Shown here: piece by piece, positions 34,157 to 41,398 of the stretch
How the letters are laid out: every line of letters begins with the position of its first letter
How positions within the stretch are numbered: position 1 is the stretch's first letter
DNA from: Promethearchaeota archaeon
GTDB taxonomy: Archaea; Asgardarchaeota; Lokiarchaeia; Sigyniarchaeales; SOKP01
DNA: 64,000 nucleotides
Direction of reading: 5' to 3'
Assembly (NCBI GenBank): GCA_048940925.1
Contig: JBHLOC010000018.1
Location: 8,415 to 72,414, forward strand
The notes under the pieces: generated by a model
Told to the model about the DNA's origin: nothing
The model's input: the letters and a program-made list of their open reading frames with translations, nothing else
The model's database searches: none
Translations under genes and position numbers: made by a program

Positions 34157-35872
34157 ATGATTATTAATAATCAATCAAGAAAGATAAAATGGATAAGTAT
34201 TTTTGCTGTAATTTTCATAATATTTGCTATTTGCCTTCCAGGAGCATTAAAATATGGGAACAGCAAATCTAACTCTGTTTTTAATCCAAATGATTCTATT
34301 AGAGATTCTAACAATACAAATTATTTTTCAAAGGAAAATTATAGTGAAATTCTTTCAACTGAAAAACATGGTTTAGGAAATATAACTATAACTGACTTGA
34401 TTTTTAATAGATTAGAATTAGGTATCTGTAGCAATAATGATACCTATCCTCTTCTTGCCAAAGATTTTAATTCTACTGCGATAAATATGACTATTGAAGG
34501 TTTTAAATTTATAAAAGTTGTCACACCAGCTAGGAATGACAATCTTGATGATTCTTTCCCCAATAAAAATAATATTACTGTACTTTTGAATGAATCTCTT
34601 TACTTTAAGTATAATAATTCAAAAACAGGCTATTTAATTTATCTTTCTCGTTTAGCAAAAACTCGTCTTATTGATTTCTATATACAGAATGGAACAAATA
34701 AAGTGAAACTTGAAGAAAAAACAGATTATCATTTTGATAAACATAATTTTATTGTATTTCACTATAAGGATTTTTTCCGCGAAGATCCAACATTTAATTT
34801 TTCTGGCAAGATTTTTAATTTTTCAATGTATCTTATATGGGAATGGGATATATTTATAGAAAATTGGGATCTAGTCCAAACTAATGATCTAATGGTAGGA
34901 AAAGCATTAGAAAATTACTCAGTTGATTATACATACAGTTTCAATTTAGTAGGAAAAAAGCATAACCAAAGCAATTTAGCTCCTTTTATTGATACAGATA
35001 ATTTGTATGGTGCCTTGAGGATTGATTTATTTGATAAAGAGCTATTAAATGACCACATTTTAGAATTAAATAATGAGATAGTGGATATTAACACTCATTT
35101 AAATCCAAATAAAACTATAAATGTTTTACCATCTGATTTTTTTTTATTGAATTCTAGCAGTTTTAGATTAAATTTTACTACAATATTCACCTTGAGATTT
35201 GTGGATCCTGTTGGAAGATTTTGGTCTATCGATAGACTTGTAGCAAAGCGGGATGTACGAGAAAGGATTTATTTTCCTTCCTTAATTGCAGGACCAAAGC
35301 ATTTTTATCTAAAATCTTTAACTTTTTATGAGCCTAGTATTCTTTTTGAAAATATGATTAGTGCTTATCCATTGTTCGAAAGAGAGATGGATTATTATTA
35401 TATAAATACATCTATACCGGGAGAAACGAAGTTGATGGTGAATATGCCTTTTCTGATTTTTGGAGAAACATGCCCTTTTAGCCTTAAGTATAATACTTCA
35501 ACAACTTTGAAAATTATTATTACCGATACCATCCGTATGCCCTTAATAGGAGCAAAAGTTGAACTTTTTTATAATGGAGTAGAATATGGAACATACATTT
35601 CAAATAATGAAGATCAACCAATACCGCTTGGAAACACAAATGAGAATGGTGAAATCATTCTAAATAACGTTATTATTGGAAATTACACTGTGAGAGTGTA
35701 TTACAGAAATTCATTTATTAAGGAAGCCTCAGTCAATACTTACAAGGCAAGTAATTATGTGCGCACTAACATACTCCATTTTCCTGTCTGGATAGTGGTT
35801 TTTGGAGCCTTAAGTGGGACTTTTATAGCTATAGGTATGATATATTATCTAAAAAATAAAAAATTACGATAA
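34157..35872 (+). CDS. Cell-surface protein with N- and C-terminal TM segments
   Basis: Hydrophobic termini, many N-x-S/T sequons, TNENG prealbumin-like beta domain near the C-terminus. Confidence 0.7.
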   Translation: MIINNQSRKIKWISIFAVIFIIFAICLPGALKYGNSKSNSVFNPNDSIRDSNNTNYFSKENYSEILSTEKHGLGNITITDLIFNRLELGICSNNDTYPLLAKDFNSTAINMTIEGFKFIKVVTPARNDNLDDSFPNKNNITVLLNESLYFKYNNSKTGYLIYLSRLAKTRLIDFYIQNGTNKVKLEEKTDYHFDKHNFIVFHYKDFFREDPTFNFSGKIFNFSMYLIWEWDIFIENWDLVQTNDLMVGKALENYSVDYTYSFNLVGKKHNQSNLAPFIDTDNLYGALRIDLFDKELLNDHILELNNEIVDINTHLNPNKTINVLPSDFFLLNSSSFRLNFTTIFTLRFVDPVGRFWSIDRLVAKRDVRERIYFPSLIAGPKHFYLKSLTFYEPSILFENMISAYPLFEREMDYYYINTSIPGETKLMVNMPFLIFGETCPFSLKYNTSTTLKIIITDTIRMPLIGAKVELFYNGVEYGTYISNNEDQPIPLGNTNENGEIILNNVIIGNYTVRVYYRNSFIKEASVNTYKASNYVRTNILHFPVWIVVFGALSGTFIAIGMIYYLKNKKLR

Positions 35873-36244: not shown

Positions 36245-37834
36245 TTATTTATGGTTGATTTGTTCCCCATATCCTATTAGTCGATAACGCCTATTAATTA
36301 TACGAGAAATAGCATATATGAAATCTTCAGGGGGACAAATAGGAGGTGTAAGTTTTATAATAACACTATTTTTTAAAATTTTCGTAACAGTCCCACCTGT
36401 TTTTTCCGTTCCTACTACAAGTAATAATTTCTCTCCATGTTTGAGAGGTTGAACTTTCATTTGAACTTCAGATCCAATAACTCTATCTAAAAGATTTACA
36501 TTCAGCTCAACTTCGCTAAGAATTTTAGGTAATGTTCCTATTTTTCCAACTAAATGGCCAATTAGATGATCTCCTTTTGTTAACGCGGGATCTAATTTTG
36601 TACCTAACCCTATGAGACCTCCAGGTTTAGCATTTTCCAAAGGATTATTTCCTTGGCTTATACTTACAACCGTAGATTTTAATGGTACATACTGATCTTT
36701 AACTCGTATCCCCGGGCTAATTTCGATTTGGTCTCCAACTATTATTTTTCCTTTTAAAACAGAGCCCCCTATTACACCACCTTTTAAATCCTTAATTTCT
36801 TTACCTGGACGATTGATATCAAAGGATCTCGCAATTAAAAATTGAAATGACTCCTCCTCTTTAAATTTTGGAGTAGGAATAACCTCTTCAAAAGCTCTTA
36901 TTACAAGATTTATATTCGCCCCAAAAACTGCCGATAAGGGTATAATTGGAGCATTTTCAGCAACAGTTCCTTTTATAAATTCTTTTATTTGTTGAAAGTT
37001 CTCTAAGGCTTGTTCTCGAGAAACAGCATCAATTTTATTTTGTAATATAATAATATTTTTTATGCCCGCAATATTTAAAGCCGCTAAGTGTTCCCGTGTT
37101 TGAGGTTGAGGGCATTGCTCATCAGCTGCAATTAAAAGGCAAGCCCCATTCATTAATGATGCACCACTTAACATAGTTGCCATTAATATCTCATGACCAG
37201 GCGCATCAACAAATGAGATATTTCTTCTAAATTCTAGATTTCCTTTACATTTTGGGCAAGAGAATCGAGCTTGTCCTTTTTCTCTATCTTTTTCTGCAAG
37301 ATAAGCCGTTGTATATTCATTACATTCGGAACAATAAAGAATTGAGGCATTAGAATACCCTAACTTTATTGAAATTCCTCTTTCTTGCTCTTCTGAGTGG
37401 CGATCAGTCCAATCTCCAGTTAGGGCTTTTACTAGGGTTGTCTATATGTTTCATGAAGGATTCCTTCAAAAAATTCCATGATCAACATGCCCTACAAGCC
37501 CTATATTACATTCTGCTTGTTGTTTGATTAATTCTTTTATCTTCTTAGCTTTCTCTTTCGAAACTGGCTTTGCTTTAGGTTTAGATATCGTTTCTTCTTT
37601 AATTATTTCTTTCACTTCATCAGATTGTTCTATTTTTTGACTTTTCTTTAGAATTTTTTTAGCATTTGTAATATACTTCTCTGCTGTTGCTTTTCCAACA
37701 CCTTTTATTTTTAGCTTTAATAAATCCTTGGGTTCAGCATTTGCAAGTTTTTCAACAGAATCAATATTAGCAGCCTTTAATCTTTCTGCTGTTGCTTTTC
37801 CAATTCCACTTACATCTTCCAATTTATATGACAT
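36245..37834 (-). CDS. eif2g: Translation initiation factor 2 gamma subunit with N-terminal HhH domain; join(37474..37834, 36245..37443), 519 aa after removing a 30-nt insert
   Basis: Exon 1 ends NIGLVGHVDHG. Exon 2 continues in the same frame TTLVKALTGDWTDRHSEEQERGISIKLGY, CxxC/CxxC knuckle, FVDAPGHEILMATMLSGA, PQPQTREH, QNKID, RSFDINRPG, RLIGYG. Confidence 0.95.
37444..37473 (-). other. Candidate bulge-helix-bulge intron in aIF2-gamma mRNA (30 nt)
   Basis: Removing UUUUUUGAAGGAAUCCUUCAUGAAACAUAU restores AAG (Lys of GHVDHGKTT); both junctions fall after nt 2 of 3-nt bulges flanking a 4-bp helix. Confidence 0.8.
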
Positions 37835-37963
37835 TATAGTTTTATTTTATATTATTTAGGTCCTATATATCTAGTTTCCTAAGAACAATTAAGCTAGTAT
37901 TTTTTATTAAATTATTCAATATATTGACTACTTTAAAAAGAATTAACTTTAAGATCAATTAAA

Positions 37964-38188
37964 TTATTTTGTTTTAATTGTTTTAATCCCACCAGGTTTT
38001 TTTTCCATCTCTTTATAGGACACTCTTAAAAGGCTATCTACATAAAAAGTCGATAGTTTTTTACAGTGATTACACATAATATAGACAGGTGCTGGATATT
38101 GAGTAGGATCTATATCATCCATCTCAATCTTAAATGTAATTTTAGCTTCACAGTGTGGACAAAAATTAAATCGGAGAGGCATATTCAT
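37964..38188 (-). CDS. Small zinc-ribbon protein
   Basis: CPHC...CNHC. Confidence 0.7.
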   Translation of the reverse strand: MNMPLRFNFCPHCEAKITFKIEMDDIDPTQYPAPVYIMCNHCKKLSTFYVDSLLRVSYKEMEKKPGGIKTIKTK

Positions 38189-38280
38189 TTAATTTAATTT
38201 TATAATAAATAGATTCTTATTTCTATTATATTTATTTTAATATAAAATTAATAGTAAAAATTACCTGTTACTGATTCTAA

Positions 38281-40407
38281 ATGGCTAAAGTATTATTAAA
38301 AATAATTATTTGTTCATTTCTTATACTTCTGATTTCCTTTCCATTTTTAAACTTATTATTAGTTTATTATGTGGATAATTCAAATAATTTAGAGTTTCCA
38401 GGAACAGATATTGATCTTAGTAATAACTCTAAAGTCGATTTATCCTTATTACCAAAAATTGATTATGAAGTATTAAATAACCTTTGGTATAATCCAAAGA
38501 TCGAAATGTTGATTATAACACCCAATAGATCCGATTTCATAAATACTATTAAACCATTGGCAGATTGGAAAAATGAAAAAGGTGTAAAGACGATTATCTT
38601 AAGTAATTATTCATTATATAATGGTGTGGATGATGCTAATTCTATTAGAAATATGATAAAAACTTACTATGAAAAAGAAAATATTAAATGGGTTCTTTTA
38701 GCTGGTGATGCCCAAGATGATTTGATCCCTATTAGAAAGGTTTATAATCCCGATGTATTAAGATGGGGTGAGGGAGCTAAAGAATCGATTCCAGGTGATT
38801 ATTATAAACCAACTGATTTTTATTATGCGGATCTCACAGGCAGTTGGGATAGTGATGGTGATGGAAACTGGGGAGAGGCTCCTCAAGATAATACTTATGG
38901 TTTAGATGAGATCTCATGGATTCCTGAAGTCTATGTTGGTCGCTTTCCAGCTGATACAGCTAATGAACTTGAAATTTTGGTAAACAAAACATTAAATTAT
39001 GAAGTGGATCCTAATATTGGTAATTGGATGAATAGAATGCTTTTAGCGGGCGGGATATCTAGTTATGTTCCCCAAGAATATGAAAGCCGCTTAACAGATT
39101 ACATTATCCAAAATTATGCTAAATCTGAAATGAATTATACTCATTTAGTAGAAGAAGATGGTAACCTTACACAATCAAGTCTCAAAAATTATTTTAATCA
39201 GGGATACTCAACAGTAATAATGGCAGGTCATGGAAGCCCTACAGCTTTCTATCGAAATCCTAGTCGAGTAGGTTATTCATCTTCAGATGCAAACTCAAGC
39301 TTGAATGCCTATATGCCGTCTTTAGTGTATCTCGATGCCTGTTCCACCTCTAGCTATGATTATAATGATAATAATTTAGGAGAAGTTTTAATAAATAGAT
39401 TAAATGGTGGTGCTATTGGTACAATTGGAGCCCTAAGATTTAGTTATTATTTCGAAAATGATGATAATCTTGAAAAATTAAATCGTGGGAATGCGAAATT
39501 ATTTTGGGAAGAATTTTTTCTTAATAAAAAATTTCAACAAGGTAAAGCATTGTATGATTCTAAGGTTTCTTACATAAATAGTGATTATTATAAGAGAGGG
39601 GACGGATCTACTGATTATGATTTTGAACGTAAAAATATCTTAACTTATTGTCTTTTAGGTGATCCTGAAGTTGATATCTTTACTGATCAACCAAGAAAAG
39701 CATTAGATCCATTTAGTGAAGATATTTATGCAGGTCAATTAGTTAGTCTTGTTATTAAAGATAAATATAATCAGATAGTTCCAAATGCAAGAGTTCACTT
39801 TAAAACTGTAGATAACATATATTATACTGTATATGCGGATGCTAATGGAGTAGTAGAGTTTAGAGTTCCCGCACAAACCACTCAAATATATAATGTGACA
39901 ATTACGGGACATAATTTGATACCTTCCAATTTTAGTTTTTTAACATTAAGAGATAATACAATGCCAGAATTAAGCAGTGTAGATATTGTTCCTCAAAACC
40001 CAAATACAGCAGATACTCTTTATTTCAATATCACAGCTTTTGATAATCTTTCGGGGTTAGAAAGTGTCTATCTATTCATTTCTAAAGATAATTTCAAACA
40101 TTATTCCAATTATAGCGGGTCAAATGGAATCTTAGATAATGAACGCAGGTTTATGCTCGATATTGGTAAATTAAAACCTGGAAAATATTCGTACCTTATC
40201 ACTTTAAGAGATTATGCTAATAATACAAAAATTTTTTATGATAACAGTTTTAAATTTACAATACCTAGACCTTTGATGGATTATATACTTCCTATTTCTT
40301 TAATGATAATAATAGGAGCTGCAGGAATTTCAATTTTTATCTTTTATGAGGGATTCCTAACCTATTTCAAAAAAATAAGAAATTTTGAAAAAAATTTATC
40401 ATCATAG
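38281..40407 (+). CDS. Peptidase C25 (gingipain-like) membrane-anchored protease
   Basis: VLLAGD, TDFYYADL, VGRFP, AGHG...DAC His/Cys dyad, LLGDP; N- and C-terminal TM. Confidence 0.88.
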   Translation: MAKVLLKIIICSFLILLISFPFLNLLLVYYVDNSNNLEFPGTDIDLSNNSKVDLSLLPKIDYEVLNNLWYNPKIEMLIITPNRSDFINTIKPLADWKNEKGVKTIILSNYSLYNGVDDANSIRNMIKTYYEKENIKWVLLAGDAQDDLIPIRKVYNPDVLRWGEGAKESIPGDYYKPTDFYYADLTGSWDSDGDGNWGEAPQDNTYGLDEISWIPEVYVGRFPADTANELEILVNKTLNYEVDPNIGNWMNRMLLAGGISSYVPQEYESRLTDYIIQNYAKSEMNYTHLVEEDGNLTQSSLKNYFNQGYSTVIMAGHGSPTAFYRNPSRVGYSSSDANSSLNAYMPSLVYLDACSTSSYDYNDNNLGEVLINRLNGGAIGTIGALRFSYYFENDDNLEKLNRGNAKLFWEEFFLNKKFQQGKALYDSKVSYINSDYYKRGDGSTDYDFERKNILTYCLLGDPEVDIFTDQPRKALDPFSEDIYAGQLVSLVIKDKYNQIVPNARVHFKTVDNIYYTVYADANGVVEFRVPAQTTQIYNVTITGHNLIPSNFSFLTLRDNTMPELSSVDIVPQNPNTADTLYFNITAFDNLSGLESVYLFISKDNFKHYSNYSGSNGILDNERRFMLDIGKLKPGKYSYLITLRDYANNTKIFYDNSFKFTIPRPLMDYILPISLMIIIGAAGISIFIFYEGFLTYFKKIRNFEKNLSS

Positions 40408-40408
40408 T

Positions 40409-40966
40409 TTAGTGTTCTTGCTTTTCGATTTTATCTTTCTTCATTCTTAATAAGTATAAAATTGAACTCACACTCCCGAAAATACCTTGGATAATTAAGG
40501 CTAAAGATATTAATAAAACAGCTAGTAAATCCTTAAAAACAAATAGAAATATAATAATAAAAATTCCAGCTACTGTAAATTTCAAAATAGAGGAAAGTTC
40601 GCTGAATACAATTTTCCAGCTTTTAGATTCCTTTACTCTCATTTCTAACTCTTCATGATATTTTTCTTCTCCAATTTCTTTTATATACCAGCTCCCTTCT
40701 ATGTTATTTGCAAAAATTAAAATACTCCACCATAATATAAAGAAACTAAAATAAAAATCTAATGACCCTAATATTATAATAGGTATTTGCATTAGAATCA
40801 TTCCTTTCCAACCTACACGTCTAGCTATTTTGTTTGTTTCTAATTTCAATTCTTTAGAAACATATCTAGTGCTAAGTATATCAAGTAATCTTCCTATAAA
40901 TGTTAAAAATGCATTTATCAAATATTGATACCAGTGTACATCACGTATAATTAATTGAAATATCAT
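40409..40966 (-). CDS. Hypothetical membrane protein
   Basis: 4-5 TM segments, D..ST...LE.N motif. Confidence 0.7.
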   Translation of the reverse strand: MIFQLIIRDVHWYQYLINAFLTFIGRLLDILSTRYVSKELKLETNKIARRVGWKGMILMQIPIIILGSLDFYFSFFILWWSILIFANNIEGSWYIKEIGEEKYHEELEMRVKESKSWKIVFSELSSILKFTVAGIFIIIFLFVFKDLLAVLLISLALIIQGIFGSVSSILYLLRMKKDKIEKQEH

Positions 40967-41121
40967 ATTCTTCAGCTCTCCTTGCGATCTTCCTTTTGAA
41001 TTTAATCTTTTTAATGAAAAACTTTTTTTATTACTCTTTATTCTTCTAACTACACTTTACCAAATAAGTAAAGATTTACATTGTAAATAATAGTACTTAT
41101 TAGATGGTAAAATGTGGTTTT

Positions 41122-41302
41122 ATAACCACATAAATATATAGCATTTTGCTAAGCGCCGGATGTTAAACTTATAAGTGTTGCAGGATAGTACTGCAGTTGC
41201 GATCTGTGGGAAACCTCAAACTGTGAGTTCGCTCACGGTCATGGCTTTAAAGGATAATACCCGGTCCCATCCGAACCCGGAAACGCTTATTTATGTGGTT
41301 AT
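41122..41302 (+). other. Processing stem with a BHB/BHL motif flanking the permuted 5S rRNA
   Basis: ATAACCACATAAAT (41122-41135) pairs with ATTTATGTGGTTAT (41289-41302); AAGCG (41151-41155) with CGCTT (41284-41288); CCGG (41156-41159) with CCGG (41277-41280); bulges AAA and ATG. Confidence 0.8.
41162..41282 (+). rRNA. rrf: 5S rRNA gene, circularly permuted (3' half 41162-41227, UUCG linker 41228-41231, 5' half 41232-41282)
   Basis: Helix III/loop C signature CCCGGTCCCATCCGAACCCGGAA at 41260-41282. GTTAA plus loop E AGTA...GGGAAAC lie upstream of it instead of downstream. Helix I CTGTGAG/CTCACGG is closed by TTCG. Confidence 0.9.
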
Positions 41303-41398
41303 TAATGACATTAACCTTTTGTTTCTCTAAAAATAAATTTTTATACGATTAATTATAAATCTAATTAATATTTCATAATAAATTAGCTGAAAACACAT

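Follow-up and report, generated by a model that had tools for sequence, protein, structure and literature searches.

Putative substrates of the tRNA-splicing enzymes in the aIF2-gamma and permuted 5S rRNA genes of a Lokiarchaeia-type archaeon

Do two neighbouring genes of the translation machinery in an Asgard archaeon yield RNAs that the tRNA-splicing endonuclease (EndA) and ligase (RtcB) have to process? An initial annotation of the window (the whole 64,000-nt stretch analysed here) proposed an insert in the gene for initiation factor aIF2-gamma and a permuted 5S rRNA gene, both cut after the second bulge nucleotide of slightly relaxed BHB motifs. Both elements are present where it placed them (Table 1), and sequence and predicted fold bear out the cutting rule and the relaxation of each motif.

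Anatomy of the two loci

A genome-wide search located a single aIF2-gamma gene, on the minus strand and split by a 30-nt intron of the tRNA type. The unspliced frame runs from GHVDHG through IF-stop-RNPS-stop-NI-stop into TTLV, the stops being TGA, TGA and TAG, and removal of the 30 nt gives CAT GGA A^AG ACA (^ marks a cut or joint throughout), which reads GHVDHGKTTLV with the P-loop Lys codon restored. This is the sole excision that restores the codon, both of its cuts fall between the second and third bulge bases, and the predicted spliced joint is GGAA^AGACA, that is GAUCAUGGAA^AGACAACCC. Exon 1 starts with the ATG at 37834 and encodes an N-terminal HhH domain, a Lys/Glu linker and the beginning of the G domain, which runs to GHVDHG and one base into the Lys codon; exon 2 holds the remaining G domain, domain II and the eIF2-gamma C-terminal domain.

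The central helix of the insert, AUGG/ACAU, forms three of four pairs with one G.A opposition, and is flanked by the bulges AAU and AUA (cut AA^U and AU^A), an inner stem with 9 of 10 pairs and an outer helix GUUG(A)UC/GACAAC. Taking the cut sites as fixed by the protein, we calculated the chance of this geometry as ~3e-5 (base-pair probability 0.39); the fold energy alone was not significant (z = -1.35). The intron was also recovered blind by our own genome-wide BHB scan. A register with a perfect central helix (CAUG/CAUG, 4/4) was rejected because its product reads HGTYRQ, not HGKTT. The insert therefore combines the geometry of a BHB (EndA-type) intron with restoration of the product, and its removal is predicted. 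The window also has a 571-aa ORF at 34157-35872; the Pfam search for an HNH or homing-endonuclease domain covered the two small ORFs beside aIF2-gamma, and neither carries one.

The sole 5S rRNA gene of the genome lies ~4 kb away, at 41162-41282, and is circularly permuted: the 3' half of the molecule precedes the 5' half, and between them UUCG caps helix I. No match to the Rfam 5S model (RF00001) reached the gathering score in the 64-kb window or the whole 4.8-Mb genome; the best match (22.1 bits, threshold 38) is local and aligns 41258-41283 to model positions 26-52, a sub-threshold score that is expected because the gene is permuted. After rotation, the 121-mer is collinear over its full length with nine canonical sister-family 5S genes and has every helix and conserved loop in the proper order. 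The 3' part comprises GUUAAAC, the loop E region, GGGAA and lastly the 3' strand of helix I, and the 5' part runs from the 5' strand of helix I through loop A, helix II and helix III into loop C, ending in CCCGGAA.

The gene is enclosed by a BHB motif with a complete central helix (CCGG/CCGG, 4/4) and an outer helix (UAAGCG/CGCUUA), followed by a leader-trailer stem of 12-15 bp. Cuts are predicted at 41161^41162 (bulge AU^G) and 41282^41283, and the precursor fold is more stable than expected (z = -4.4, 0 of 200 shuffles as stable). The inner helix at the 5' cut is weak and unconvincing, hence a relaxed-motif enzyme would be required. The joint, CCCGGAA^GUUAAAC or GAACCCGGAA^GUUAAACUU, recreates the canonical 5S sequence. 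The locus thus has the sequence make-up of a BHB-flanked permuted RNA gene, for which a circular product is predicted.

Table 1. Positions of the aIF2-gamma and 5S features in the window, with the evidence for each or its component parts.
Feature	Position	Strand	Basis or detail
aIF2-gamma exon 1	37474-37834	-	ORF list, translation, Pfam HHH_5 (E=7e-12)
aIF2-gamma BHB mini-intron, 30 nt, phase 1 in P-loop Lys codon	37444-37473	-	Translation, fold, blind recovery
aIF2-gamma exon 2, including stop codon	36245-37443	-	Pfam GTP_EFTU, GTP_EFTU_D2, eIF2_C
aIF2-gamma intron central helix, 5' strand AUGG	37476-37479	-	Pairs with ACAU 37446-37449; sequence, MFE fold
Distal processing stem, leader strand	41122-41136	+	Pairs with trailer 41288-41302; MFE fold
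5S BHB, leader side	41150-41161	+	Outer helix UAAGCG 41150-41155, central CCGG 41156-41159, bulge AU
5S normal 3' part	41162-41227	+	Collinear alignment after rotation
UUCG tetraloop bridging the natural 5S 3' and 5' ends at helix I	41228-41231	+	44-sequence comparison
5S normal 5' part	41232-41282	+	Rfam local match, alignment
5S BHB, 3' side	41277-41289	+	Central CCGG 41277-41280, bulge AA^A, outer helix CGCUUA 41284-41289
Distal processing stem, trailer strand	41290-41302	+	MFE fold, covariation

Permuted 5S genes, splicing enzymes and the predicted product

Of the 135 family genomes, 100 have a permuted 5S gene, and these represent 11 of 13 genera. A canonical 5S gene is absent from the host genome and from 36 genomes of its genus, two of them single-contig, and is present in 12 of 14 genomes of the sister family (50-68 bits). 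Candidates in other Lokiarchaeia orders (G038, G043, G056-G060) were rejected, their weak Rfam matches being collinear at the 5' half; the 3' halves of these matches look interrupted or divergent.

Two breakpoints occur, GGAA^GUUAAAC (type A) and GGUC^CCAUCC (type B), which give the same mature 5S under the same cut rule. The central helix is complete (4/4) in every sequence of the genus and covaries between genera (CCGG/CCGG, CUGG/CCAG, CUGG/UCAG), and the outer helix (3-8 bp) changes completely in sequence with pairing kept. Across 44 distinct precursors the core pairs of the distal stem hold, with compensatory changes; in the same number of sequences all eight pairs of helix I are always paired, two of them showing G-C/A-U swaps, and its cap is UUCG, UUUG or UUAG. 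Furthermore, additional 30-nt BHB introns interrupt the 5S gene at three positions in 18 species, all with a 4/4 central helix, and their removal restores the consensus. The 30-mer across the predicted 5S joint is identical to one in canonical crenarchaeal-type 5S genes, and in one metagenome scan it matched only canonical 5S genes on contigs of unrelated crenarchaeal-type archaea; as it also occurs in canonical genes, such matches are no RNA evidence for splicing.

The genes for both enzymes lie outside the window, as the initial annotation had noted; the genome has genes for a catalytic EndA alpha, a degenerate EndA beta and an intact RtcB. The alpha protein (C58 protein, best PDB match 3p1z_B) retains the Tyr/His/Lys triad, the conserved VVYKKG, LEH and VRKK motifs and a conserved Trp. 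It also carries an insert resembling the Crenarchaea-specific loop (CSL), in which ISKPR supplies the equivalents of Aeropyrum pernix K44, whose function was described by Hirata 2011 (PMC3241643), and R46; this loop, ISKPRLEYFSKPSE, can be aligned with VEKPRGADFEGPLR of A. pernix and has no counterpart in the beta paralogue (C18 protein), in which Tyr has become Phe and His is lost. Such an architecture had been reported for Asgard archaea by Kaneta et al. 2018 (PMC5829648). The enzyme thus looks like the broad-specificity EndA that had been anticipated, an (alpha-beta)2 type with an L1/CSL loop, for which cleavage of relaxed motifs is predicted.

Maturation of both RNAs very probably requires the tRNA-splicing enzymes. 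We put the probability that the aIF2-gamma transcript and the permuted 5S are substrates of the archaeal tRNA-splicing pathway at about 0.85, and we infer cleavage and ligation in vivo. The (alpha-beta)2 EndA would cleave both precursors and RtcB would ligate them. In the aIF2-gamma pre-mRNA, the exon-intron junctions would fold into a relaxed hBHBh' motif, each 3-nt bulge would be cut by EndA behind its second base, and the exons would be joined by RtcB; the AAG Lys codon of the P-loop would thereby be recreated, and the single aIF2-gamma gene would give a protein of 519 aa. The 5S RNA would be transcribed as a permuted precursor whose leader-trailer stem ends in the BHB (bulge-helix-loop on the 5' side), EndA would release the 121-nt body, and joining of its ends would recreate the helix III/loop C sequence GAACCCGGAA^GUUAAAC.

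Processing most likely yields a covalently closed circle in which the UUCG loop bridges the natural ends, and this circle would itself be the ribosomal 5S. Cutting by EndA with no ligation would instead leave a linear 5S, permuted and with a hairpin-closed helix I, whose ends lie in helix III/loop C, or the circle may be reopened elsewhere. All the 5S sequence evidence fits a nicked permuted molecule equally, and PMC12918454 describes circular pre-16S and pre-23S RNAs that are reopened in several archaea. However, RtcB, which this genome possesses, normally ligates the RNAs that archaea release at BHB motifs, Thermoproteus has a permuted SRP RNA that functions as a circle (Plagens 2015, PMC4731332), and the cut sites restore the loop C/helix III string base for base with both types of breakpoint. 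A nicked or reopened 5S is therefore unlikely, and we favour the closed circle.

Mini-introns in the genome and the genus

Six further introns of 30-31 nt were verified in other protein genes of the host genome, bringing the protein genes with checked mini-introns to at least seven, aIF2-gamma included. The intron of an EF-2 paralogue has the 30-nt architecture (central helix 4/4, inner helix 8/8) and its removal restores DSD^DEEQERGITI; a Ras-like GTPase gene is interrupted by the same 30-nt architecture (Pfam Ras 1-58 ^ 60-157), and the class recurs in genes for an AMP-binding enzyme and a ThiF-like enzyme. Together with the 30-nt introns in the 5S genes of relatives, these agree with the broad use of EndA and RtcB proposed for the lineage. 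The Rpo10 and mevalonate kinase genes were also located in the host genome.

A genome-wide BHB search, as the initial annotation recommended, recovered the aIF2-gamma intron when combined with ORF joining, and candidates from it were confirmed afterwards by Pfam continuity. Its counts did not rise above slid-register controls, either in full (~14,700 candidates against ~14,800) or after a dominant-frame filter (3,310 against ~3,450), hence the scan provides no census of introns.

At the P-loop site of aIF2-gamma, introns are present in four of 41 genomes of the host genus and comprise two unrelated sequences at the identical position. Those of G001 and G003 are related to the host-genome intron, whereas that of G029 is unrelated to them, measures 29 nt and has a perfect central helix (AUGG/CCAU, 4/4). 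The gene is uninterrupted in the nearest relatives, G018 and G108, and the intron is scattered on the gene tree, where four changes are needed. The aIF2-gamma intron is thus a recent, patchy element that probably spreads laterally.

The initial annotation had also read meaning into the proximity of two translation-related substrates within 4 kb, suggesting that splicing capacity could gate ribosome assembly and initiation jointly. Both products are needed for translation and require the same two enzymes, and the EF-2 paralogue is interrupted too. However, the adjacency of the 5S and aIF2-gamma genes is a conserved gene order in the genus, kept with or without the intron and older than it, and the same intron class occurs in metabolic and signalling genes. 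The presence of the intron in so few congeners and its absence from the nearest relatives argue further against a conserved regulatory gate, so a joint regulatory unit is very unlikely and the aIF2-gamma intron is not a conserved regulator. That the gene is a pseudogene or an artefact of assembly or contamination, its insert never removed, is scarcely credible: contamination of the MAG is listed as 8.4% and the nearest relatives have intact frames, but no second copy exists in a genome rated 100% complete, both exons are intact apart from the insert and encode a protein 94% identical to that of G018, the contig retains the synteny with the 5S gene that is seen across the genus, inserts with BHB geometry occur at the identical position in three independent MAGs, and further genes of the same genome hold inserts of this class.

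Relation to known systems and implications

Full-text literature searches returned no report that aIF2-gamma or 5S depends on the tRNA-splicing enzymes. In the literature consulted, splicing of archaeal coding sequences by protein enzymes is established only for the cbf5 pre-mRNA of Crenarchaeota (Watanabe 2002; Yoshinari 2006; Yokobori 2009, PMC2738675), and PMC5829648 cites just three cbf5 studies. Like cbf5, aIF2-gamma is a protein gene with a BHB-type intron of lineage-specific presence or absence, and the hetero-oligomeric splicing endonuclease that removes the cbf5 intron is of the type predicted here. The present case differs in its host gene, its Asgard (Lokiarchaeia-type) lineage and its minimal 30-nt unit within the P-loop codon; the intron is also far patchier (4/41 congeners) and part of a genome-wide class.

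Permuted tRNA genes are known from Cyanidioschyzon. Organellar permuted 5S rRNAs (Valach 2014, PMC4267664) share with the present gene a permuted order in a small translation RNA, whereas the host here, in contrast to these organellar and algal cases, is an archaeon; no archaeal permuted 5S was found in full-text literature searches. The SRP RNA of Thermoproteus tenax (Plagens et al. 2015, PMC4731332) is likewise permuted, with its natural ends closed and a functional circular RNA. By comparison, the permuted gene described here encodes 5S rRNA, is fixed family-wide (100/135), has two alternative breakpoints and acquires further mini-introns. Archaeal pre-16S and pre-23S circles and the permuted 23S of Pyrococcus (Birkedal 2020, PMC7758197; PMC12918454) involve a leader-trailer stem with a BHB, excision by EndA and circularisation by RtcB, but their genes are collinear and permutation is post-transcriptional, whereas here the 5S gene itself is permuted.

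The permutation explains the report by Wu et al. 2022 (PMC8813620) that 5S genes cannot be detected in Asgard genomes. It would also correct the explicit exclusion of archaeal 5S from the excision and circularisation pathway in PMC12918454. The two breakpoints with one product are a natural experiment on the requirements of the endonuclease. A 2026 preprint on Asgard tRNA introns names the spread of BHB introns as the central open problem, for which the patchy aIF2-gamma intron and its shared flanking exon tract offer a handle.

Tentatively, at slightly less than an even chance, we suggest that the tRNA-splicing enzymes make a closed circular ribosomal 5S throughout the family and also serve mobile ~30-nt introns which invade aIF2-gamma, EF-2 and 5S genes and spread between species with a short tract of flanking exon. 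If the splicing proposed here is true, archaeal mRNA splicing also takes in an initiation factor that is essential, along with several other genes of one genome, and gene callers would therefore mis-annotate such genes. Proteinaceous mRNA splicing with mobile introns would then exist in the closest prokaryotic relatives of eukaryotes.

Permuted 5S genes in the window and in relatives

The initial annotation had proposed that two non-tRNA elements, a 5S rRNA gene in permuted order and an insert in the aIF2-gamma gene, are substrates of the tRNA-splicing endonuclease EndA and the ligase RtcB. Their anatomy under the cut rule and the comparison with relatives support this, and both are very probably genuine substrates. 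At the gathering score, Rfam gave no 5S match in the window or in the whole source genome (G000; AT-rich, 4.8 Mb, 90 contigs), the sole trace being at 41258-41283, where a local match to model positions 26-52 scores 22 bits. Every 5S element is present at 41162-41282, in permuted order, and the 121-mer rotated to begin past the tetraloop aligns unrearranged with nine canonical genes from the sister family. A leader-trailer stem of 12-15 bp extends beyond the outer helix of the BHB (bulge-helix-bulge) motif, and the fold of the complete precursor has z = -4.4. Once the released ends are joined, the sequence reads GAACCCGGAA↓GUUAAAC (arrows mark cuts or joints); unrelated archaea have the 30-mer at this predicted joint, letter for letter, in their canonical 5S genes. 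An A/T-rich block (…AAAATAACCGNNCTTATAWAATGG…) is conserved upstream of the leader stem, at a distance of ~20 nt (window 41040-41120), and CTAAAAATAAGTTTTTA after the trailer (window 41330-41350), both also in the same regions of relatives' loci L005-L034; on visual inspection, they resemble a promoter and an oligo-T terminator belonging to the gene itself.

Canonical 5S genes were found in 0/36 genomes of the genus, including two single-contig ones, and in 12 of 14 genomes of the sister family (50-68 bits). By BLAST, the permuted locus is present in 34/36 genus genomes and family-wide in 100 of 135 genomes, covering 11 of 13 genera. There are two kinds of breakpoint: type A, as in the window (GGAA↓GUUAAAC), and type B (GGUC↓CCAUCC), where a 16-nt segment, CCAUCCGAACCCGGAA, has left the 3' end of the body and stands at the 5' end instead. 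Between the types, homology is kept in the leader (GCGCYGGAA) and the trailer (ACGC...), and a single cut rule yields an identical mature 5S sequence from both. With one genome taken per species, a pattern scan counted 18 genes of type A and 24 of type B; among other genera, eight have type A and two (g21, g26) a type B-like gene.

The BHB central helix is 4/4 in all genus sequences and covaries with helix III between genera (CCGG/CCGG, CUGG/CCAG, CUGG/UCAG), while the outer helix is swapped for unrelated yet complementary sequences, e.g. CCCAU/GUGGG and CACUAGA/UUUAGUGC. Across 44 distinct sequences, helix I is paired at 8/8 positions, with G-C/A-U swaps at two, and its loop reads UUCG, UUUG or UUAG, a pattern which favours a hairpin cap over a processing site.

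GenBank relatives of G000 are MAGs labelled Promethearchaeota or Promethearchaeia (former Lokiarchaeota), such as Loki_b32, CP070831 and CP070805; two single-contig genomes (4.4 and 6.0 Mb) share its order and belong to a different family. Several MAGs with the genus-specific 5S cap (L097, L101, L102, L106, L118, L120, L126, L133, L139) carry Hod-, Hermod-, Odin- or Thorarchaeota labels, which look inconsistent with their 5S sequence. At L109 (CAZRKO010000109.1), in one MAG, the helix I cap and 5' half are followed by a type B trailer and the upstream 3' half is unrecognisable, possibly owing to a large insert, rearrangement or misassembly. In other families or orders of the class (G038, G043, G056-G060; L077-L083), the only 5S matches are sub-threshold (20-38 bits), with collinear 5' halves and 3' halves shortened, lengthened or displaced; these genes may hold introns, not a permutation.

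No publication describing a permuted archaeal 5S gene, or an intron in aIF2-gamma, came up in full-text literature searches. As precedents, the permuted SRP RNA of Thermoproteus (PMC4731332) and, for a protein gene, the cbf5 intron (PMC2738675) come closest. 5S genes were not predictable in the Asgard genomes of Wu et al. 2022 (PMC8813620), and excision with circularisation is said to apply to 16S and 23S, not 5S (2026 paper, PMC12918454).

Mini-introns in 5S and protein genes

The 5S genes of 18 species hold additional inserts at three positions, 30 nt long except for one of 31 nt (loci among L093-L140 and L009-L034). In each, the central helix is 4/4 and the bulges are 3 nt long, and excision with cuts behind the second base of the bulge brings back the consensus. 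Their layout is 1 + 23 + 4 + 2 nt (a single base, the hairpin region, the central-helix bases and a last two), and the aIF2-gamma intron shares it. Some permuted genes contain two mini-introns, giving a 180-nt body.

In a blind BHB and ORF-joining scan of G000, along the lines of the suggested genome-wide search over split coding sequences, signal was inseparable from noise in bulk, but the aIF2-gamma intron was recovered, along with candidates whose joined translation resembles continuous proteins. The insert in one of two aEF-2 paralogues reads as a textbook BHB intron; it lies directly before the EEQERGITI switch region, the TIGR00490 match continues across one TAA, and excision restores ...QMTDSD↓DEEQERGITI. 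Five further inserts are BHB-shaped and 30-31 nt long.

Coordinates and structural elements of the 5S gene, the aIF2-gamma gene and candidate mini-introns (C-numbers, G000 contigs; others, window)
Feature	Position	Strand	Description
5S 3' part	41162-41227	+	first in permuted gene order
UUCG tetraloop	41228-41231	+	between 3' and 5' parts
5S 5' part	41232-41282	+	last in permuted gene order
5S flanks		+	upstream UAAGCG-CCGG-AU↓G opposite downstream CCGG-AA↓A-CGCUUA
aIF2-gamma frame	37834-36245	-	ATG to stop
aIF2-gamma insert	37444-37473	-	30 nt
aIF2-gamma outer exon-exon helix		-	GUUG(A)UC/GACAAC; fold with protein-fixed borders
aIF2-gamma central helix		-	AUGG/ACAU, three pairs plus G.A; fold
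aIF2-gamma bulges		-	AA↓U and AU↓A; fold
aIF2-gamma inner hairpin		-	9/10 pairs, AAU closing loop; fold
5S mini-intron site 1	loop C, near rotated position 43		ten species
5S mini-intron site 2	near rotated position 41		one species
5S mini-intron site 3	near position 93		seven species
EF-2 paralogue intron	C32:27895-27924	-	30 nt; central helix UCAG/CUGA, inner stem 8/8
Ras-like GTPase insert	C78:59767-59796	-	exons = Pfam Ras positions 1-58, 60-157; directly after WDIAGQ
AMP-binding enzyme insert	C17:5106-5135	+	exons = positions 79-208, 222-302
ThiF/E1-like enzyme insert	C87:16432-16461	-	within GxGxxG; consistent, bounds less tight
AIRS-domain protein insert	C30:66095-66124	+	consistent, bounds less tight
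Hexapeptide-repeat protein insert	C18:48863-48893	-	consistent, bounds less tight

The aIF2-gamma insert and the splicing enzymes

In translation, the aIF2-gamma frame reads ...NIGLVGHVDHG IF(stop)RNPS(stop)NI(stop) TTLVKALTGDW..., with a Pfam HhH_5 domain (E = 7e-12) in the N-terminal 120 residues and GTP_EFTU, domain 2 and eIF2_C downstream of the break. Removal of the insert joins GGA A to AG ACA and restores GHVDHGKTTLV, and shifting either border by one base loses the lysine codon. The minimum-energy fold of the region is exactly the tabulated BHB shape; its energy is ordinary (z -1.35), and the weight rests on geometry at protein-fixed positions and on comparison with relatives. With bulges AAU and AUA and a central helix of 3/4 pairs, the motif is relaxed. 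The N-terminal extension of ~120 aa (window 37475-37834, minus strand) combines the HhH_5 domain with a Lys/Glu-rich linker, and the length of the open frames, 513-549 aa within the genus and 477-625 aa within the sister family, suggests that this extension is conserved in the order.

EndA alpha (contig C58, 198 aa; best match A. pernix catalytic subunit 3p1z_B, E = 4e-33) retains Tyr, His and Lys plus the substrate-pocket Trp, and its insert ISKPR... aligns to VEKPR of the Crenarchaea-specific loop. In EndA beta (contig C18, 200 aa) the loop is missing, the His is lost and Phe takes the place of Tyr; the RtcB (556 bits) is intact. In A. pernix, Lys44 of the loop is required for cleavage and broad specificity comes from the loop (Hirata 2011, PMC3241643); an (alpha-beta)2 EndA with this loop was previously inferred for Asgard archaea (Kaneta et al. 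2018, PMC5829648). With a catalytic alpha bearing a loop-like insert and a degenerate beta, the broad-specificity EndA predicted for this lineage stands as its putative type.

Distribution and probable origin of the aIF2-gamma intron

The initial annotation had noted that the two elements lie within 4 kb, both in the translation machinery. Most genus genomes have 5S and aIF2-gamma on one contig at a distance of 3-4 kb, whether the intron is present or not, hence their adjacency is conserved synteny. The proposed joint regulatory gate is not supported by any of the tests made here, because the intron is young and patchy. The gene is single-copy, uninterrupted (513-549 aa) in 32/36 genus genomes and interrupted only in G000, G001, G003 and G029; five additional genus genomes also lack the intron, leaving it in 4/41. 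Among these five, G108 has a 5S region 98% identical to that of the window, yet its aIF2-gamma is intron-less. The inserts of G001 and G003, 30 nt long, are related to that of G000 and sit at the identical position, where G029 has an unrelated 29-nt insert with a perfect AUGG/CCAU central helix and bulges AA↓U and AA↓A.

In a maximum-likelihood tree of the gene, with 120 nt adjoining the intron site excluded, an intron-less sister stands beside every intron-bearing allele at 100% support (G000 with G018, G029 with G012, G003 with G028+G007), and the intron distribution forces four changes. At the start of exon 2 (first 30 nt), G000 shares 97% identity with G001 and 93% with G003, against only 80% with its sister G018; farther downstream it is closer to G018 (90-97%) than to G001 (63-83%). 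Repeated loss plus pairing constraints is a weaker alternative to the reading we take, a probable recent acquisition of the intron in G000, which would have brought along a short exon tract.
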